Source: Clostridia bacterium
Lineage (GTDB): Bacteria > Bacillota > Clostridia > Saccharofermentanales > UBA5734
Length of the DNA: 64,000 bases
Assembly (NCBI GenBank): GCA_040772725.1
Contig: JAXGXR010000001.1
Location: 9,977-73,976 of the forward strand
Direction of reading: 5' to 3'
Under the pieces are notes generated by a model, which saw nothing but the letters and a program-made list of their open reading frames with translations, did no database searches and had not been told where the DNA came from. A program made the translations under genes and the position numbers. Positions within the stretch are counted from its first letter, which is position 1. Each line of letters opens with the position of its first letter. This document shows positions 1-61,733 of this stretch, in pieces.

Positions 1-72
1 GACTTCCTGCCATTCATCAAGCAAACGTGGGGGCTCACCGTTAAGCACTAGATTCGGATCAAGTTGTGCCAT
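1..72 (-). CDS. possible 5' end of an unidentified gene running off the left edge (first 24 codons only)
   Basis: A minus-strand ATG at 70-72 opens a frame that stays open to position 1 (MAQLDPNLVLNGEPPRLLDEWQEV). There is no clear SD and it is too short to identify. Confidence 0.25.
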   Translation of the reverse strand, partial: MAQLDPNLVLNGEPPRLLDEWQEV

Positions 73-322
73 CGTACGATTTTGGAAATTGTTTTCCGGA
101 CTTGCAAGAATGGAAGCGCTATTTGAGTGATTGAGCGCTGTCCATTTCGATAAATATAATCACACGTTTTCGATTGAATTTGGAGTGTTAAATTGCGGTT
201 CCTTCTGAATGCGTGTTCAGAACAGATATGATATGGAAATGACCCGTCGGAAGATCAAACATCGGTTGGATGTGATTACGCCTTTGAATCGGGCTATCTG
301 ATTGCAAAATCGCACCTGTCAG

Positions 323-440
323 AGTTAGTTCCGTTCGTTTCTGTGTTGGTGCCTGGCTCGCTTTCGGTACTGAAAACGGCGAGCCTTACAGCCGCAACGG
401 ATATCGAACGATAGTTCCGATTTGATGTCTGGCACCGAAG
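323..440 (-). repeat. inverted-orientation copy (~1.3 units) of the intergenic hairpin repeat family seen at 9137-9690
   Basis: The reverse complement aligns by hand with the array unit (GGTGCCAGACAYC..GGAACT, GCGGCTGTAAG, AGTACCG..CGGAACT). It carries TAGTTCCG at 326-333 and 412-419, GGTGCCTGGC at 348-357 and CTGGCACCG at 429-437. Confidence 0.7.
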
Positions 441-449
441 CATGAATCC

Positions 450-8617: not shown

Positions 8618-9001
8618 ATGGACACAAACAAGAGTTTTTATCGCTGCAGCATTTGCGGAAACATTGTCGGCCTGATCCAGGATGGCGGCGGGGAACTCGT
8701 CTGCTGCGGACAGCCCATGGATCTGCTCAAGGCCAACACGACCGACGCCGCGACAGAGAAGCATGTTCCTGTCCTGACCCGTAACGGCAATAATCTGCAT
8801 GTCGAAGTTGGCAGCGTCGCCCATCCGATGGTCGCCGAACATTACATCCAGTGGATCTGCATCGCCCAGGGCAATCTCACCCAGCGCACCGCGCTTGATC
8901 CGGGCGATCCGCCGGTGGCTGATTTCGTGATCTGCGACGGACCGGTTGTCGTCTACGAGTACTGCAACCTCCATGGATTGTGGAAAGCGGAGCTCGAATA
9001 A
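8618..9001 (+). CDS. dfx: desulfoferrodoxin (class I superoxide reductase)
   Basis: N-terminal CxxC...CC desulforedoxin-like site (CSICGN, VCCGQPM), KHVPV, and His/Cys ligands of the SOR centre. AAGGAGG SD. Confidence 0.92.
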   Translation: MDTNKSFYRCSICGNIVGLIQDGGGELVCCGQPMDLLKANTTDAATEKHVPVLTRNGNNLHVEVGSVAHPMVAEHYIQWICIAQGNLTQRTALDPGDPPVADFVICDGPVVVYEYCNLHGLWKAELE

Positions 9002-9092
9002 ACATCCTTTGCCCGGTTGTTGATCGGCCAGCCGCCGTTCAGACGGTGACCCATCAGCAAGTGTAAGATGATCCGATTCCAGCCATATGCAA

Positions 9093-9129
9093 AACTGCCG
9101 GACGCGAAGTAGCGTCCGGCAGTTTTTTT
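9093..9129 (+). terminator. intrinsic terminator of dfx
   Basis: A 13-bp stem, AACTGCCGGACGC (9093-9105) with GCGTCCGGCAGTT (9112-9124), followed by a T7 run. Confidence 0.85.
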
Positions 9130-9136
9130 GCGTGTG

Positions 9137-9690
9137 GGTGGTGCCACGGGCGCGGGTGGTGCCATGGGCGGTGCCACGGGCGGTGCCAGACACCGATTCA
9201 GAACTTCGTCAAAGACACTCCCCGTAAGCCCTGAGCCTGTAGTATCACAAGCCCTGGGCCACCATTAGTTCCACCCCGGTGCCTGGCACGATTACGGTAC
9301 CCCATAAAGTGGACACATAGTTAGTTCCGTTTGTTCCGCAGTCAGTGCCAGTTGCCGATTCGGTACTAATTCTTGTACTCTCCTAAAAACCGCTGCGGCT
9401 GTAGTATTACAGAACATGACGCCGCGCTAGTTCCGAAATCCCGTCTGGCACCGCTCAGTGGGCGGTGCCAGACACCGATTCAGAACTTCGTCAAAGACGC
9501 AACCCGTAAGCCCTGAGGCTGTAATGTCACAAGCCCTGTAACCGCACGAGTTCCGTTCGCGCGCCTGGCACCGATTTCGGTACCCGGCGGAACGAACTGC
9601 CGAACGCTCATGCTATGATGACAGGGTTTATTTTCGCGCTTGAAAGTATGTGAGGCACCATTGCTATTTAACGCTTAGTTGATATAAGGT
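9137..9690 (+). repeat. array of an unclassified hairpin-forming intergenic repeat: three degenerate units, a 12-bp GGTGCCAYGGGC mini-repeat and a 3' tail
   Basis: 79-bp direct repeat 9178-9256 vs 9460-9538 (6 mismatches by hand alignment). A diverged third copy lies at ~9343-9452. Recurrent blocks are GGTGCCAG/CTGGCACC, CGATTCGGTAC/CAGAACT, GCTGTARTRTYAC and TAGTTCCG. No credible ORF. Confidence 0.8.
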
Positions 9691-9701: not shown

Positions 9702-9730
9702 TTGACAATCTGGTGTTCTGTTTCTATAGT
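9702..9730 (+). promoter_or_regulatory. sigma-A type promoter of the TrmB-like regulator / lysA operon
   Basis: TTGACA (9702-9707), 17-nt spacer, TATAGT (9725-9730). Confidence 0.6.
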
Positions 9731-12385: not shown

Positions 12386-12455
12386 ATGGCCGATTGACAT
12401 GGCCAATCGAGGAAATGACGTTTCAATTAAAATAAAACAAATGTTCTTATATTGC

Positions 12456-12484
12456 TTGACAGCAAGCCTCCAGATGCGTATACT
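12456..12484 (+). promoter_or_regulatory. sigma-A type promoter
   Basis: TTGACA (12456-12461), 17-nt spacer, TATACT (12479-12484). Confidence 0.6.
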
Positions 12485-12518
12485 GACAATAACGAACATA
12501 TGTTTGGAGGCGTGCAAA

Positions 12519-12932
12519 ATGACAATGCTGAATGGACTGTTCTTCCTGATGATCGGACTGGCCGGTCTTGCGACCGCACTGATCCTGGCTGATCTCAACA
12601 GGCGGGAGGATGAAGCGCTGGCTGAGTTGGCTCGTCTTCAGTCCGGAAAGCCTGCCATGGCCGCTTCGCGGAGCAGTCACAGACGTTCATGCGATCATGC
12701 ATATGTTACGGAAGGTCTATCATCATCAGGGCACATGAATTACGCCACAATGGAACGGTCCGGTAGACTGGATGATTTCCTGACCGTCGCAGATATGAAA
12801 CAGGAATCAGATCACAGATGTCGTGATAGAGCAGTCAGCTTTGATTTTGCCATCTTCGGGAAACAGACAGATGCAAACATGGCAGGTGCAGAGGGTCACT
12901 CATTCGCGTCAGACGCAGAACACTGTGCCTGA
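12519..12932 (+). CDS. hypothetical protein with one N-terminal TM helix
   Basis: ATG at 12519 preceded by a GGAGG SD. Hydrophobic N-terminus LFFLMIGLAGLATALILA. I recognise no family. Confidence 0.5.
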   Translation: MTMLNGLFFLMIGLAGLATALILADLNRREDEALAELARLQSGKPAMAASRSSHRRSCDHAYVTEGLSSSGHMNYATMERSGRLDDFLTVADMKQESDHRCRDRAVSFDFAIFGKQTDANMAGAEGHSFASDAEHCA

Positions 12933-13185
12933 CATGTCATGACCGTGTTAAAAAACATTTTGCATTCTATTGTCATTTCATCGTAAAATATGTCTGACAT
13001 GAAAGGCTTGCCAACTTGTCAGACTACGGTTTCGATGACTTCCCCATGTTTGATTGATGTATTCATTGACGAAACAGTTGTCAGCACAGAACAATTGGCA
13101 CCCACCATGGCACTCAATTTTAGATATCAATCATGTGTGGACCCTCGGGTCGCAAGCATGTCAGTGTCAGCCAGGAGGTGCCCAG

Positions 13186-13953
13186 ATGCCAGACCTGAAA
13201 TCTGTTCTGGGACAATTGATGCAACAAGAAGCTGATCTCAGTCAGCCGTCTGATGATCAGTGCGATGCATCATGGAATCGGATCAGTCAACTGATTGACC
13301 AAGTGGAGCAAGAGCGGGGAAGACCTCAGAAGTCATTCCCGAGTCTTGATTCATTCGATTCGCTTGACAACGAGGAATGGAATCCCAAGACAGCTTTTGA
13401 CGCCCGATCCACTCCGCGCAGTTTCTGGCGGTTGCCAACCCGCAGGCTGGCTGCAGCCATGCTGGCGGTGTTTTTTGGCGTCGTTGCCTTGCTGGCCGGC
13501 GCACTGTATCTGCAGAGCAGCGGTATCCTGCCCGGCCCGACATCAACAACGATCATACTGACCGACGAACCAATCCCCCTGGCAGATCCTGATGCTCCGA
13601 TACCGGACCTGGACCAGCTGGCCGTTTTCCTGTCATCATCCGACAGCACACAGCTGCTTGAGGTGCCAACGCTGTCACCAGACAGCCAGAAAGCAGCTGT
13701 TGAAGCATTGGTCAGCCGCAACTGCATGACCATCGCCCGGAGTGGCGTGTCTGCCTTGCCCGGTACGGCTTACTGGGTTGCCCGTAAACTTGCCGACCAA
13801 TCAGACAAGATGCTTGTCCTGGTCGCACGGGAACGTGAAGGTGAGATTGGCTGGCAGACGATCTTCCAGATCTTGCCCAAGTCATCCGACTTGCCTTCCG
13901 GGAAAGCACTGGACGAATATTTTTCCAGACAGCTAGCCAAGCATACCGACTGA
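13186..13953 (+). CDS. hypothetical single-pass membrane protein (anti-sigma-like topology, no recognisable domain)
   Basis: ATG at 13186 with an AGGAGG SD. Central TM helix LAAAMLAVFFGVVALLAGALYL. I recognise no family. Confidence 0.55.
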   Translation: MPDLKSVLGQLMQQEADLSQPSDDQCDASWNRISQLIDQVEQERGRPQKSFPSLDSFDSLDNEEWNPKTAFDARSTPRSFWRLPTRRLAAAMLAVFFGVVALLAGALYLQSSGILPGPTSTTIILTDEPIPLADPDAPIPDLDQLAVFLSSSDSTQLLEVPTLSPDSQKAAVEALVSRNCMTIARSGVSALPGTAYWVARKLADQSDKMLVLVAREREGEIGWQTIFQILPKSSDLPSGKALDEYFSRQLAKHTD

Positions 13954-45021: not shown

Positions 45022-45051
45022 TTGCGGAAATCATAGCACAACTGATATAAT
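45022..45051 (+). promoter_or_regulatory. promoter of the DRTGG/HydS-like operon
   Basis: TTGCGG (45022-27), 18-nt spacer, TATAAT (45046-51). Confidence 0.5.
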
Positions 45052-45117
45052 CATTTCAAGTACAAACGAACTGAACGCGTGCGAAAATTTGGATAGGTTG
45101 AACAAAAAAATACGAAA

Positions 45118-45483
45118 ATGAGGGCTTTGCCTATGAAATTGATCGATTGCGTTGGTTTGCTGAAGGCAGAAGTGCTCGTTCCTGCCGATGACATGGACAT
45201 GGATATCAGGGTGGCTTGCGGAGCAGACCTGATGAGCGATGTCATGGCCTTTGCCTGCACGAACAACGAAATGCTGCTGACCGGGCTGGTCAATCCTCAG
45301 ACAATCCGGACGGCCGAGATGATGGATGTCAAGGTGATTGTGTTTGTTCGCGGCAAGACACCGCCGGAAAACATGGTGCGGCTGGCCAGTGAAAAAAGCA
45401 TCTGTGTCCTGTCTACGACCTTTCCCATGTTCACAGCCTGCGGTCTTCTCTACAATTCCGGGATCAAGGGCAAGGGGGAGTGA
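45118..45483 (+). CDS. DRTGG-domain protein (copy 1)
   Basis: ~120 aa with LLTGLVNPQTIRTAEMMD and VIVFVRGK patterns typical of DRTGG domains. An alternative start is at 45133. Confidence 0.8.
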   Translation: MRALPMKLIDCVGLLKAEVLVPADDMDMDIRVACGADLMSDVMAFACTNNEMLLTGLVNPQTIRTAEMMDVKVIVFVRGKTPPENMVRLASEKSICVLSTTFPMFTACGLLYNSGIKGKGE

Positions 45484-45486
45484 CTT

Positions 45487-45909
45487 ATCGACCCTGTCAA
45501 GCTTGATTTCGTCATTCGCGGTCAGGATTTCGTCAATGCCGGCGAAGCATCGAGCGGCACAAAAAAGGCACTGATGCGTCTCGGCGTTCCGCCGGCTGCC
45601 GTCAAACGGGCCGCCATCGCCATGTATGAAGCGGAAATCAACGCAGTCATCCACGCCAATGGCGGTCATGCGGAAGTTGAGATATTCAGCGACCATGTCG
45701 AGATCTGCATCAAGGACAACGGCCCGGGCATCCCCAATGTCGAGCTGGCCATGCAGGCCGGTTGGTCCACGGCGCCCGACATCGCGAGGGAAATGGGTTT
45801 TGGCGCCGGCATGGGCCTGCCGAACATCAAGAAAAATTCCGACAGTCTGAAAATCGAGACAGAAGTCGGACACGGGACAACCGTGCGCATCGAAATCGTC
45901 TTCCGATGA
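45487..45909 (+). CDS. RsbW/SpoIIAB-like serine kinase-type ATPase (HATPase_c_2), start codon unresolved
   Basis: AMYEAEINAVIHA, DNGPGI and GFGAGMGLPNIKK ATP-lid motifs. The first ATG is 45574, but the family-typical N-terminus (IRGQDFVNAGEASSGTKKAL) is encoded from 45484, directly after the in-frame TGA of the upstream gene. A GGGGGAG SD lies at 45474-80, and 45487 is an ATC codon. Confidence 0.6.
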   Translation: MDPVKLDFVIRGQDFVNAGEASSGTKKALMRLGVPPAAVKRAAIAMYEAEINAVIHANGGHAEVEIFSDHVEICIKDNGPGIPNVELAMQAGWSTAPDIAREMGFGAGMGLPNIKKNSDSLKIETEVGHGTTVRIEIVFR

Positions 45910-45946
45910 ACGCTTGTCCTCCTTTCCGTCCAGGAGGTTTCACATT

Positions 45947-47302
45947 ATGTCCAGGTTTCATTCCGTCCAGCTGAACCGTGACCTTTGCGTCGGCTGCACC
46001 ACCTGCATCAAGAAGTGCCCGACCGAAGCGATCCGGGTCAGGGATGGAAAGGCGAAAATCAATGACAATCGCTGCATCGACTGCAGTGAATGCATCCGCG
46101 TGTGTCCGCATCACGCGAAAAGCGCATCCATGGATTCCCTGGACCGCATGCAGGAATTCGACTACAATATCGCGCTGGCCTCGCCATCGCTCTATGCCCA
46201 GTTCGGCCCGCCGGCCGACCGTTTCATGGTGCTGGCCGCGCTCAAGAACATCGGATTTGACGATGTCTATGAAGTGGCGATCGGTGCGGACATCGTCACG
46301 GAGAACACGATCAGGCTGATGAAGGAACTGGGGAAGCGGGCACCCCGCCCCATGATCTCTTCCGCCTGCCCGGCGGTCGTCCGTCTGATCCAGATGCGCT
46401 TTCCGGGCTTGATTGAACACCTGGTTCCGTTCGACTCCCCCATGGAGGTGACCGCCAGCATCGCGCGCGGTGAGACCATTGTCAAGACAGGCCTGAAATC
46501 CGACCGGATCGGCATATTCTTCATCAGCCCCTGCCCGGCCAAGCGGACCGCGGTGGTCAATCCGCAGAGTTTCCAGCGTTCCCAGGTCGATGCGGCCGTG
46601 GCCACTTCTGAAGTGTATCCGCTGATCCTTTCCAAACTTGAAAAGATGGATCCCCAATCCGTCGAGGATTTCAAGCAGCATCAGCTGGCCCATGCTGGTG
46701 GTATCCGCTGGGGCTACATCGGTGGCGAATCCATGTCGCTCAACACGGAGAAATATCTGGCGGTTGACGGTATCCACAGTGTGATCTCCATTCTCGACGA
46801 GGTGGAGAACGAACGCCTGCGCGACATCGATTTCATCGAGGCGAATTCGTGCCTGGGCGGCTGCATCGGTGGAGCCCTGAACGTGGCCAACCGTTTTTCC
46901 GGACGGGCACGCCAGAGCGCTTATGTCCGGGCTGCCAACCAGCTGGCTCAGGCTCATCCGGAAAAATTCTTCGATGCCCGTCACATTGTCCTGCCGGAAT
47001 GGGAGCATCCGATCGAGCCCAATCCCGCGCTCAACCTTGACGAGGATATCGGCAAGGCCCTGGTTAAATACGAGATGATCGAACAGATCGTCAAGAACCT
47101 GCCGGGCCTCGACTGCGGGGCCTGCGGGGCGCCTGACTGCCAGGCGCTGGCCGAAGACATCGTACAAGGCGAAGCGACAGAAACGGACTGCATCTTCAAG
47201 CTCAAGGAACGGATCCGCCAGGTGGCTGCGGAGATGATCGCCCTTGAATCCGAAATGAACCGGCACACCTTGCCGGGCGATGTGAAAAAGGACACGAAAT
47301 GA
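45947..47302 (+). CDS. [FeFe]-hydrogenase-like sensory-type protein (HydS-like: 2x[4Fe-4S] ferredoxin domain, H-domain, C-terminal Cx2Cx4Cx16C)
   Basis: CVGCTTCIKKCP and CIDCSECIRVCP motifs. H-cluster-type motifs are SSACP, SPCPAK and EANSCLGGCIGG. The C-terminus carries DCGACGAPDC...DC. AGGAGG SD. Confidence 0.85.
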   Translation: MSRFHSVQLNRDLCVGCTTCIKKCPTEAIRVRDGKAKINDNRCIDCSECIRVCPHHAKSASMDSLDRMQEFDYNIALASPSLYAQFGPPADRFMVLAALKNIGFDDVYEVAIGADIVTENTIRLMKELGKRAPRPMISSACPAVVRLIQMRFPGLIEHLVPFDSPMEVTASIARGETIVKTGLKSDRIGIFFISPCPAKRTAVVNPQSFQRSQVDAAVATSEVYPLILSKLEKMDPQSVEDFKQHQLAHAGGIRWGYIGGESMSLNTEKYLAVDGIHSVISILDEVENERLRDIDFIEANSCLGGCIGGALNVANRFSGRARQSAYVRAANQLAQAHPEKFFDARHIVLPEWEHPIEPNPALNLDEDIGKALVKYEMIEQIVKNLPGLDCGACGAPDCQALAEDIVQGEATETDCIFKLKERIRQVAAEMIALESEMNRHTLPGDVKKDTK

Positions 47303-47658
47303 AAATTTCTGATGTTGTGTCCGGCCTGCCGGCTGCCTGGTTGACACCGGAACCCGATCATGAAGCATTGACTGCACGCGAGATCAACAGCGGCTATGCT
47401 TGTGATCTGCTCAGTCTGGTCATTGCCGGAGTCAAGCGGGACGAAGCCTGGTTCACCATTCTCAACAGCGTGAATGTGGTGGCTGTGGCGGTGCTCGCCG
47501 ATTGCCCGCTGGTCGTCCTGACCGAAGGAGTGGTCATGGACCCGGAAGTCGTGGCGCGGGCGGCCGACAAGGGCGTATGGGTGGTGTCCACAAAACTGTC
47601 GACCTATCGGGCCTGTGTTCGCCTGAACGCGCTGATCGAAGCTGATGACAAGGCATGA
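47299..47658 (+). CDS. DRTGG-domain protein (copy 2)
   Basis: 119 aa with a DRTGG-like pattern (LLSLVIAGVKRDEAWFTILNSVNVVAVAVLADCPLVVLTEG). ATGA overlap with the HydS-like gene. Confidence 0.8.
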   Translation: MKISDVVSGLPAAWLTPEPDHEALTAREINSGYACDLLSLVIAGVKRDEAWFTILNSVNVVAVAVLADCPLVVLTEGVVMDPEVVARAADKGVWVVSTKLSTYRACVRLNALIEADDKA

Positions 47659-59744: not shown

Positions 59745-60680
59745 TCAGTCAGCCGGCAGCAGGACGAGCGGTCCAGACACGGTTTTGACGGAAATGTTGC
59801 CACCGCCGCCATTGCGGGTCGCTTCCACCACACGGTTGATTTTTGACATCACCTCCACCGGAAGCCGTTTGCTGTCAAAATCGCCGGAAATGGTTTCAAA
59901 CGAAATGTCGAATCGGGCCTTTTCCGGAAAAGACAGCTCGACTTTGCCGCTGACCGTGTCCACTTTCAGCGCTTTCGGCTCAAGGGTCGCGTATTGGGCC
60001 GTGATTTTCCCTGAAACGGTCTTGAGATCGGCCTTGCCTATGATGGATGCGAGGTCGATCGTTCCTGACACGATATTTACATTCATCTTCGACCAGTCGG
60101 CCGTATCGGCTTTCAGGTCACCGGACACCCCGGTGTAATCGAGTTCAGACCAGTCGGTACCGGCCGGATTCGTGATGACGCAGTCGCCGGACACGGTTTT
60201 GATCGTGACGGTTCCGTCGAAATCCTCCGGAATCGACACATCCAGGGAAAGCCCATCATTTCTGAAGCCCCAGCGGGGATAATCCGGTTTGATGCGCACT
60301 GTCTGGCCGGAACGGGTCACGGCAAAGCCGAGTCCGACAGTGGCGCGATAGGGGCCATGCAAGCGGGCAACGACCTGCTGGCCCTGGGCCGAAACGCTCA
60401 CCTGTTCTGACACAACCTGGATGATGATGTGATCGATGCCGTCCAGCGAAGCCGTATGGGTCTGATCGATCGTGTACGATTTCCAGGGCCCGACGTGAAT
60501 GCCTCGGGCCCAGTCACGAAACTGTTCGACCACCTGGGTGACATTGGCCGGGAATTGGTCCAGATTGGCCAGCCCCTGCCAGCCGACAGTCGCGACGGTC
60601 AGAATGACACCGGAAACCAATGCCGTGATGAAAACAACCAGACAAAGAATGATGACCGTGAGCAGCACGGGATGTTTCAT
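59745..60680 (-). CDS. DUF4097-family beta-strand-repeat protein with an N-terminal TM anchor
   Basis: Repeated VSG(D/K/T) beta-strand pattern (TVSGDC, GVSGDL, IVSGTI, TVSGKI, TVSGKV, TISGDF, TVSGPL). GGAGGTG SD. Confidence 0.75.
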   Translation of the reverse strand: MKHPVLLTVIILCLVVFITALVSGVILTVATVGWQGLANLDQFPANVTQVVEQFRDWARGIHVGPWKSYTIDQTHTASLDGIDHIIIQVVSEQVSVSAQGQQVVARLHGPYRATVGLGFAVTRSGQTVRIKPDYPRWGFRNDGLSLDVSIPEDFDGTVTIKTVSGDCVITNPAGTDWSELDYTGVSGDLKADTADWSKMNVNIVSGTIDLASIIGKADLKTVSGKITAQYATLEPKALKVDTVSGKVELSFPEKARFDISFETISGDFDSKRLPVEVMSKINRVVEATRNGGGGNISVKTVSGPLVLLPAD

Positions 60681-61339
60681 GCAGCCTCACCTCCCGATAC
60701 GAGCTGTTTGTTCCACTGGATGTATTGTCTGACCGCGAGCAGAAACAGCTTGGTCAGGAAATACATGCCGATGCAGAGAAGAATGGTCAAGGCAGTCAGC
60801 GATAATCCAAAAAGGACAAAGACGATGCTGATGAATCCGGCCCGGGCAAAGGCCAGGACAAACAGGGATCCGGCCGCCACGCCGACACCACCGGCCGCGG
60901 CCCAAAGCACAATCATGACCAGCACCGTAGTGACAAAAACAGGCAGGACGATGAAGATGTTGACGATCAGGAGCAGCGCGACCATCCATCCCCGGTTGTT
61001 CGGCCGCGTCACGTACACGGATCCGGGTGAAGATTGACCGGCAGCACCGCTGCCTGGAACATGGCCTTGCGTGGAGTCTGTCCTATCCCGGTCGGACCAG
61101 CCGCCCCAACGATAACCAGCTTGTGCCCTGCCGTTGGCCTGACTGCCCGATCGGTTGGCATACTGCGCAGCGATGGCAGCCGGATCGCCCAGATCACGGG
61201 CGATGGTTTCCTCGTCCTTGCCATTGGCCAGGCCAGTGGCGAAGTGCTCGGCAAAATCGGAAAGAATGTCATCGATGTCGGATTGACCGGATCTTGCCAG
61301 CTCCTGTCTGAGCAGTCCCATGAATTCTGACTGGTTCAT
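60677..61339 (-). CDS. DUF1700-family membrane protein (HAAS-type sensor helical domain)
   Basis: N-terminus MNQSEFMGLLRQEL...DIDDILSDFAEHF...ETIARDLGDP is typical of DUF1700, and C-terminal TM helices follow. 4-nt overlap with the DUF4097 gene. Confidence 0.75.
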   Translation of the reverse strand: MNQSEFMGLLRQELARSGQSDIDDILSDFAEHFATGLANGKDEETIARDLGDPAAIAAQYANRSGSQANGRAQAGYRWGGWSDRDRTDSTQGHVPGSGAAGQSSPGSVYVTRPNNRGWMVALLLIVNIFIVLPVFVTTVLVMIVLWAAAGGVGVAAGSLFVLAFARAGFISIVFVLFGLSLTALTILLCIGMYFLTKLFLLAVRQYIQWNKQLVSGGEAA

Positions 61340-61452
61340 GAGCGATCCCCCTTTTCATGCCTGGTGCATTTTGTCCAAATGATGTTGCTACATGATCACA
61401 TATTGATCATAGTGCCCTGCCGTGTTCCCTGTCAATCCGGACGCGCATCGAG

Positions 61453-61592
61453 CGAGTTCCGTTGCGGTGCCAGGCCCGATTTTAGAACCAGGCGGAACTA
61501 ACTGCCGGGCGCTCACAAGTGGTGCCTGAGTTTTGTTTCGCGCTTAAAAGTATGTGAGGCACCATTACTATTTCGCGCCTAATTTATAAGGT
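61453..61592 (+). repeat. single copy of the intergenic repeat family (paralogue of 9547-9690)
   Basis: Hand alignment with 9547-9690 over ~140 bp. The 37-bp core at 61537-61573 differs from 9633-9669 at 2 positions. A perfect 7-bp inverted repeat, AGTTCCG (61455-61) with CGGAACT (61493-99), is present. Confidence 0.75.
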
Positions 61593-61603
61593 ACGCAATC
61601 GAG

Positions 61604-61632
61604 TTTACAGATTCTGTCAATTTGGCTATGAT
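61604..61632 (+). promoter_or_regulatory. promoter of thrS
   Basis: TTTACA (61604-09), 17-nt spacer, TATGAT (61627-32). Confidence 0.6.
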
Positions 61633-61733
61633 GAGATGAGCAATAAAAGGGGTCCGACTGATTGCGACCCGTTTGATGATGGTCGCGCCTGTCGGGACCG
61701 GGACACGTTAAAGCGTTTATTGGAGGAATCACC

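Follow-up and report, generated by a model that had tools for sequence, protein, structure and literature searches.

The DNA analyzed here, a window of 64 kb that we treat at its whole length, belongs to an uncultured member of the Clostridia whose ThrRS finds its best counterparts among GTDB species representatives, at 79%, in Saccharofermentans and Oscillospiraceae metagenome-assembled genomes (MAGs). Near the far end of the window thrS diverges from a HAAS-domain gene, which is followed by a DUF4097 gene, and the spacer between the two transcription units holds a pair of divergent predicted promoters enclosing a noncoding stretch, copy B, that is the subject of this analysis. Its counterpart, copy A, closes a repeat array between the desulfoferrodoxin gene (dfx) and a gene for a TrmB-family regulator, which is followed by lysA and a deaminase gene. 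The features of these loci and of a third repeat-bearing locus are collected in Table 1. The sequence-only reading had proposed that the tail of the array recurs in front of thrS, and window self-BLASTN bears this out, aligning 9547-9684 with 61453-61588 at 77.5% identity over 138 nt (E 8e-26); its coordinates and counts were all correct. A MAFFT alignment of the two copies agrees with the BLASTN result.

Table 1. Coordinates of the repeat element, its flanks, and neighboring genes and promoters in the window
Feature	Position	Strand	Remarks
Element copy B, full length, ~140 bp	61453..61592	+	CGAGTTCCG ... TATAAGGT; aligns with 9547-9690; absent from the L092 inter-promoter spacer
Left flanking direct repeat ACGCGCATCGAG, candidate target-site duplication	61441..61452	+	10/12 aligned columns vs. 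right repeat
Right flanking direct repeat ACGCAATCGAG	61593..61603	+	Abuts the thrS -35; orthologous to ..GCATGAG / ..GATCAAG before TTTACA in relatives
Palindromic 5′ module of copy B, AGTTCCG ... GGTGCCAGGC ... CGGAACT	61455..61499	+	Unit-profile nhmmer E 1.4e-7; member of the short-unit family
37-bp core, copy B	61537..61573	+	35/37 identical to copy A
Resident thrS promoter TTTACA-17-TATGAT	61604..61632	+	Scan 10/12; kept in L092, L084, L082, L086, L087
Divergent resident promoter TTGACA-18-TATGAT, HAAS-DUF4097 operon	61406..61435	-	Scan 11/12; in relatives drives padR-HAAS-DUF4097
thrS, 590 aa	61734..63506	+	tRNA_SAD, tRNA-synt_2b, and HGTP_anticodon domains
HAAS-domain gene, then DUF4097 gene	60677-61339 (HAAS)	-	Upstream of thrS
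Element copy A, full length, 3′ end of repeat array	9547..9690	+	Alignment and profile match
37-bp core, copy A	9633..9669	+	37-mer match
Resident promoter, TrmB-like gene/lysA operon, TTGACA-17-TATAGT	9702..9730	+	Scan 11/12
Array of short palindromic units	9134..9546	+	Includes tandem 9178-9302 / 9460-9585 and four GGTGCCAYGGGCG copies
dfx terminator, 15-bp perfect stem and T run	9091..9133 (stem 9091-9126)	+	
Two further family units without core	320..445	+	Upstream of DEAD-box helicase gene (531-1820)
Desulfoferrodoxin gene (dfx)	8618-9001		5′ neighbor of copy A, followed by terminator
TrmB-family regulator gene	start 9765		3′ neighbor of copy A; then lysA, deaminase gene

Within the alignment, a 37-bp core had been singled out as differing at only two positions, and 35 of its 37 positions are indeed identical between 9633-9669 and 61537-61573. 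Written as a degenerate 37-mer with two R positions, TTCGCGCTTRAAAGTATGTGAGGCACCATTRCTATTT, it matches the window exactly twice, at these coordinates and both times on the forward strand, and 0 of 100 dinucleotide shuffles contained a match even when 3 mismatches were allowed. An nhmmer profile of the two copies, searched against the window, recovered copies A and B (E 1e-53 and 4e-50) and otherwise gave weak matches to the unit part of the element. Two smaller details of the earlier description are likewise present in the DNA: the succession of TTGAAA or TTAAAA, an identical 16-nt spacer and TGCTAT or TACTAT within the core, and the perfect 7-bp inverted repeat of copy B, AGTTCCG at 61455-61461 and CGGAACT at 61493-61499.

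Identity between the copies is unevenly distributed along the element: it reaches 36/47 columns (77%) in the unit, 25/38 (66%) in the middle, 35/37 (95%) in the core, and 19/32 (59%) in the tail. Set against the rest of the element (83/122 identical), the core is conserved in excess by Fisher's exact test (p = 0.001), and a permutation that scans for the best 37-column window also finds the excess significant (p = 0.015). Between the window and its closest relative, which is without copy B, identity at the fourfold-degenerate sites of thrS is only 74%; at that rate, 37 neutral positions of comparable age should have accumulated about 10 changes. The core is accordingly either under constraint or homogenized by gene conversion, two processes that would leave the same conservation pattern. 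The inner palindrome of the copy B unit is degraded relative to that of copy A, and whatever preserves the core therefore does not act on the element as a whole. A feature confined to copy B is the perfect complementarity of TGGTGCCT (61521-61528), upstream of the core, to AGGCACCA in the core (61558-61565) across a 29-nt loop; copy A has TGATGACA at the position of TGGTGCCT, and no pairing is possible there.

The 5′ third of the element is a palindromic unit, AGTTCCG..GGTGCC..CGGAACT, which the window has at three intergenic loci only. Self-BLAST and an nhmmer profile of the unit located five long units, all on the forward strand, at 336-375, 9264-9303, 9332-9369, 9546-9586, and 61453-61492 (E 7.5e-8 to 1.6e-5), as well as several half units in both orientations; the same searches found no family units in the coding DNA of the window. 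GGTGCC/GGCACC hexamers concentrate at the same three intergenic loci. By our reading, the ancestral unit was probably a palindrome of ~37 bp, AGTTCCGAAATCGGTGCC-W-GGCACCGATTTCGGAACT. The 3′ extension with the core is carried by copies A and B only, and units otherwise stand alone or in arrays. The stretch 9134-9546 is a mosaic array with a 282-bp tandem duplication (83% identity; 9178-9302 / 9460-9585) and an inverted unit pair, 9429-9457 / 9459-9487, whose 29-nt arms are 1 nt apart. Each tandem copy bears a CTGTAGTATCACAAGCCCTG-like submotif, with a third, more diverged copy at ~9398, and four head-to-tail copies of GGTGCCAYGGGCG with a period of 12-18 nt (9135-9190) open the array immediately downstream of the dfx terminator. 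The units at 320-445 lie just upstream of an extended -10, TGTTATAAT (~452-460), before the DEAD-box helicase gene, and theirs is the third promoter-proximal locus.

Relatives of both gene neighborhoods were obtained from metagenome assemblies by protein search, and the contigs encoding ThrRS relatives (97, 92, 89, 87, and 82% identity) and relatives of the TrmB-like protein (74 and 70% identity) were fetched. Contig L092, of the closest relative, comes from the same sample (SRR34069003) as contig L085, which carries the 97% ThrRS gene. The thrS promoter, GAGTTTACAGA..CGCTATGATAAGG, is kept in all relatives whose contigs reach the promoter (L092, L084, L082, L086, and L087), and the divergent promoter, ..GATCATAG..TGTCAAT, is likewise kept in them. 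On the copy A side, contig L089 is syntenic from a permease gene to lysA, and its dfx-TrmB spacer of 140 bp consists of the terminator, 11 nt, and TTGACA-17-TATAGTGTTCC; contig L090 has ATTGACA..TATAGT before the TrmB-like gene, and both contigs are without the element. Both predicted resident promoters are orthologous to those of the relatives and older than the element. Since they are kept where the element is absent, they do not depend on it. A duplication of whole promoters, in which the homology of A and B would run on through the resident -35 and -10, was rejected because each promoter has its own orthologue in element-free relatives; for the same reason, the likeness of the two resident promoters is that of a shared consensus only.

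Several differences between the window and its relatives concern the genes beside the element. In every relative, padR (105-133 aa) separates the HAAS gene from the divergent promoter (L082 9360-9677, L084 567-884, L086 1227-1544, L087 4252-4653, and L092 206-523). At 61337-61435 of the window, on the minus strand, padR is gone and the HAAS start codon follows directly after the conserved promoter and leader, an arrangement found also in the same-species Logan contig L091. The loss of padR, a presumed repressor gene, coincides in this lineage with the insertion of the element beside that promoter. The thrS leader (61633-61733) is without a T-box or other Rfam match and, apart from the ribosome-binding site, is unalignable even with that of the 97% ThrRS relative (L085 1-95); among relatives its length varies from ~40 to ~170 nt. 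The ThrRS of this clade (590 aa) is without the N-terminal TGS domain. Elsewhere in the window, ORFs of 280, 516, 177, and 299 aa at 45031-47377 (minus strand) and 12399-13953 (plus strand) have a GC3 of 0.49-0.58 against ~0.7 in their neighbors and no Pfam match, and may have been recently acquired.

The relatives also supply the state of the thrS spacer before copy B. The divergent -35 boxes are separated by 34 nt in L092 (TTGTCAA to AGTTTACA) and by 166 nt in the window (61436-61601); read toward thrS, L092 has TTGTCAA, then gcacgtgtcttttaagccacaaaagacaagatca, then AGTTTACAgaatcggtgaatttggcTATGAT. The extra DNA of the window's spacer is the 140-bp element, bracketed by a direct repeat of 11-12 bp whose two members (11 nt vs. 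12, with one gap) agree in 10 of 12 aligned columns; pairs of 16-nt stretches drawn at random from the window gave p = 0.009 for this match. This repeat resembles the empty site of L092, ACGTAAGATCAAG, as we read it with the 21-nt hairpin of that contig removed, and relatives have a single similar string directly before TTTACA, ending in GCATGAG (L082 and L086) or GATCAAG (L092). On its thrS side the insertion directly abuts the -35, and on the other side 5 nt separate it from the divergent -35. Comparison with the empty site shows copy B to be an insertion, with an apparent target duplication, between two divergent ancestral promoters. The spacers of L084, L082, L086, and L087 (74-120 nt) hold no similarity to copy B above shuffled controls, and an ancestral core in relatives, of which GCTTGAAAAAAGGGGAGCACC in L082 was a candidate, was discarded, the best p of ~0.03 not standing above shuffles after allowing for 8 tests. 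At 55-75 (minus strand reading), L092 has its own 21-nt hairpin, GTCTTTTAAGCCACAAAAGAC, inserted in the same inter-promoter spacer, which appears to accept insertions repeatedly.

Copy A has the less clear history of the two, its left side being continuous with the tandem repeat of the array. The dfx-TrmB spacer measures 763 bp in the window vs. 140 bp in L089, which places copy A in ~620 bp of extra DNA, and no significant direct repeat flanks it (6/7, p = 0.24). Its ends, GCACGAG and GCAGGAG, resemble the junctions of copy B, GCATCGAG and GCAATCGAG, and all four read GCAnGAG; the likeness could reflect a target preference, a terminal repeat of the element's own, or a microhomology-mediated one-off copy. 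The portability that had been suggested for the repeat agrees with these findings: copy B is absent from the orthologous site of the closest relative and flanked by a direct repeat of its target, and copy A falls within DNA that the syntenic relative does not have.

A fixed distance between the core and the downstream promoter had been part of the same proposal. The distance itself is real, the core ending 32 nt before TTGACA (9702) in copy A and 30 nt before TTTACA (61604) in copy B, but regulatory design is not needed to explain it, since it follows from the insertion site. The position of the core inside the element is fixed, 19-21 nt before the right end, and this, together with insertion next to a -35, yields the constant 30-32 nt. 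If the flanking repeats are assigned to the target, either copy stops 11 nt short of a -35, and the repeats themselves leave 2 nt (A) and 0 nt (B). The spaces in which an insertion could be tolerated were tiny, 11 nt from terminator to -35 as seen in L089 and ~15-34 nt between the divergent -35 boxes. At other positions an insertion would fall in a terminator, in a promoter, or in a leader. The edge of a -35 is among the few tolerated places, and the two gaps of 11-34 nt would illustrate neatly, on a small scale, how compact spacers between genes restrict which insertions survive.

Searches for the element beyond the window, and for known signals within it, were largely negative. A 20-mer of the core had 0 matches in GTDB species genomes, 0 in viral contigs and 0 in plasmids, and one chance match, without flanking similarity, in JGI metagenomes; BLAST and nhmmer found no element in 92 loci of relatives (717 kb). 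Among the ~50 ORFs of the window, there is no transposase family or RAYT gene. Terminal inverted repeats were not found either, the left end CGAGTTCCGTT.. and right end ..ATTTATAAGGT being noncomplementary in both copies by our reading, and such inverted repeats as were found are internal to the 5′ unit. Rfam at its gathering threshold identified two tRNAs elsewhere in the window only, and at E ≤ 5 it added sub-threshold noise only. Folding z-scores of the core (+1.0) and tail (0.0) indicate no significant structure, the only outlier being the palindromic unit of copy A on the minus strand (z = -2.98). Further candidate identities were tried and rejected. A sigma-54 promoter does not fit, as the TGGCAC motifs are wrongly spaced and there is by our reading no TTGC at -12; comparison by eye with consensus sequences for ECF, sigma-E/K/G, CRP, LexA, PadR, and TrmB gave partial half-sites only, none convincing; and a terminator in the element was set aside, a weak G-U-rich hairpin with a T run in copy B (61506-61538) having no counterpart in copy A.

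We consider it probable that 61453-61592 is one of two full-length copies in the window of a lineage-specific, noncoding miniature repeat element of ~140 bp; full copies were counted in the 64-kb window (n = 2), and a multicopy status across the genome is an extrapolation from that count. From 5′ to 3′ such an element would consist of a palindromic unit of ~45 nt (AGTTCCG..GGTGCC-W-GGCACC..CGGAACT), a spacer of ~40 nt ending T-rich, the 37-bp core, and a tail of ~20 nt ending TATAAGGT. Copy A would be a complete element closing, on the promoter side, an array that presumably expanded between the dfx terminator and the ancestral TrmB-like promoter. Transcription of thrS and of TrmB-like/lysA would start from the resident promoters and not from the core. 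The core, as the slowest-evolving part, most likely binds a protein, which may serve propagation of the element or may be a host factor. Against the reading speak the missing terminal inverted repeats and the missing transposase or RAYT gene in the window, the lack of a significant repeat around copy A, the mutual likeness of the flanking repeats of A and B, and the conservation of the core, which hints at a function that the reading does not assign. If this reading is right, the locus represents another lineage-specific intergenic repeat family whose main use is as an annotation caveat, and the promoter-like core and its fixed distance from the -35 are side effects of insertion that owe nothing to regulatory design.

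The alternative that survives best, though we rate it as unlikely, takes up the upstream activating site (UAS) or shared regulator site of the sequence-only reading and would make the repeat a portable upstream regulatory module, its core putatively bound by a nucleoid protein or by a transcription factor of the host at about -85 from the presumed starts, through which thrS and TrmB-like/lysA would share an input. The contrast between core and remainder (Fisher p = 0.001, scanning p = 0.015), found where neutral divergence is high enough for ~10 changes in 37 nt and where decay has affected the neighboring palindromic unit of copy B, argues for it, and yet gene conversion would produce the same conservation pattern in what are two copies only. 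The two copies agree in orientation and in their distance to the -35, but a difference of 2 nt in that distance amounts to ~70 degrees of helical phase, and the core offers no recognizable operator symmetry, an imperfect AGTA..TACT dyad and a single TGTGA half-site being all that we read in it. Repeats that precede unrelated genes have been described as a class, the putative mobile promoters (PMC3575422); here, however, both promoters run without the core in relatives, and the third locus has family units and no core. Were the core to bind a regulator, the locus would show, in a dated example from nature, a mobile element rewiring the region upstream of a promoter, and as the element is absent in the 97% ThrRS relative, both states exist in nature and are directly comparable. 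A fuller version of the idea strikes us as distinctly unlikely: an undescribed miniature mobile element of an uncultured Clostridia lineage that would prefer the upstream edge of a -35 and a GCAnGAG-like target, generate an 11-12-bp duplication, and carry in its conserved 37-bp protein-binding core a portable UAS or regulatory site placing unrelated genes such as thrS and trmB-lysA under one input.

It is also improbable, in our estimation, that no mobile full-length family exists and that a stretch from the tail of the array, or from some third locus, entered the thrS spacer a single time through gene conversion or microhomology-mediated templated repair. Such a segmental copy would fit the presence of only two full copies in 64 kb, the resemblance between the ends of A and the junctions of B that microhomology would require, and the missing terminal inverted repeats and transposase. 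Against this, the 5′ module is clearly part of a family spread over several loci, and a target duplication of 11-12 bp is more typical of staggered-cut insertion. Outside the core, moreover, A and B differ by ~32%, at least the neutral divergence from the closest relative without copy B, which makes a different source copy a better fit than direct copying of A to B.

We hold it highly improbable that the core is an outward-facing sigma-A promoter (TTGAAA/TTAAAA-16-TGCTAT/TACTAT) giving each gene a second, upstream start, and here the sequence-only reading, in which the core reads as a promoter, is not supported. Its hexamers and 16-nt spacer are found in both copies and point toward the gene, and Correia, ERIC, and REPIN sequences are reported to carry promoters (PMC3575422). 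A sigma-70 consensus scan nevertheless returned the resident promoters only (11/12 before the TrmB-like gene, 10/12 before thrS, and 11/12 for the divergent promoter), with the core below threshold in both copies; by our count it scores 8/12 in each, and TGCTAT of copy A has G in place of the near-invariant A at -10 position 2. The two substitutions between the copies trade a better -35 for a better -10, so that neither box is preserved, and strong resident promoters, conserved by descent and kept by relatives without the element, lie 30-32 nt downstream. The chance that both loci share a structured RNA, whether a small RNA or a cis-regulatory leader, is close to nil, for although RNAalifold draws an imperfect hairpin over the core in which both variable positions stay paired (G-U to A-U), only 2 pairs are changed on both sides, from 2 sequences, the element lies upstream of both conserved promoters, and neither the Rfam search nor the folding scores of core and tail lend it support.

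The miniature repeat element that we favor is a member of the broad class of miniature intergenic repeats, within which it falls in no named family. Highly similar noncoding DNA upstream of nonhomologous genes of one genome, here those for ThrRS and a TrmB-family regulator, recalls the putative mobile promoters (PMPs) of Matus-Garcia, Nijveen and van Passel (2012), which, as summarized in PMC3575422, are defined by an identity of at least 80% across 50 nt or more in front of nonparalogous genes and were searched for between -150 and -50 from the start codon. The best ungapped block between A and B is 81% identical over 69 nt; in copy A it lies inside that search interval (-149 to -81), whereas in copy B it is at -214 to -146, farther upstream because of the thrS leader of ~95 nt. 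Many PMPs may not be promoters, according to their authors (PMC3575422, which also cites Correia and ERIC elements). The element described here differs from PMPs in that the actual promoters of thrS and the TrmB-like gene are predicted to lie outside the repeat.

Among MITEs that affect neighboring promoters, the Correia elements of Neisseria and the ERIC elements of enterobacteria insert next to promoters and can change transcription. The present element is like them in being 100-150 bp long, noncoding, and intergenic, and copy B has both a flanking target duplication and an empty site in L092. It is unlike them in having no terminal inverted repeats and no predicted promoter activity, and its 11-12-bp duplication contrasts with the TA of Correia elements.

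The REP, REPIN, and BIME elements of Proteobacteria, which Bertels and Rainey reportedly treated in 2011, are resembled by the 5′ module, a short imperfect extragenic palindrome occurring at three loci singly, in inverted pairs, and in a mosaic array. Mobilization by a single-strand Y1 transposase (RAYT) is not expected to produce a direct-repeat target duplication; copy B in contrast has a flanking direct repeat of 11-12 bp, and the window has no RAYT gene. The host here, furthermore, is a member of the Clostridia, and the element continues beyond its palindrome into ~95 nt of nonpalindromic 3′ sequence that includes the core.
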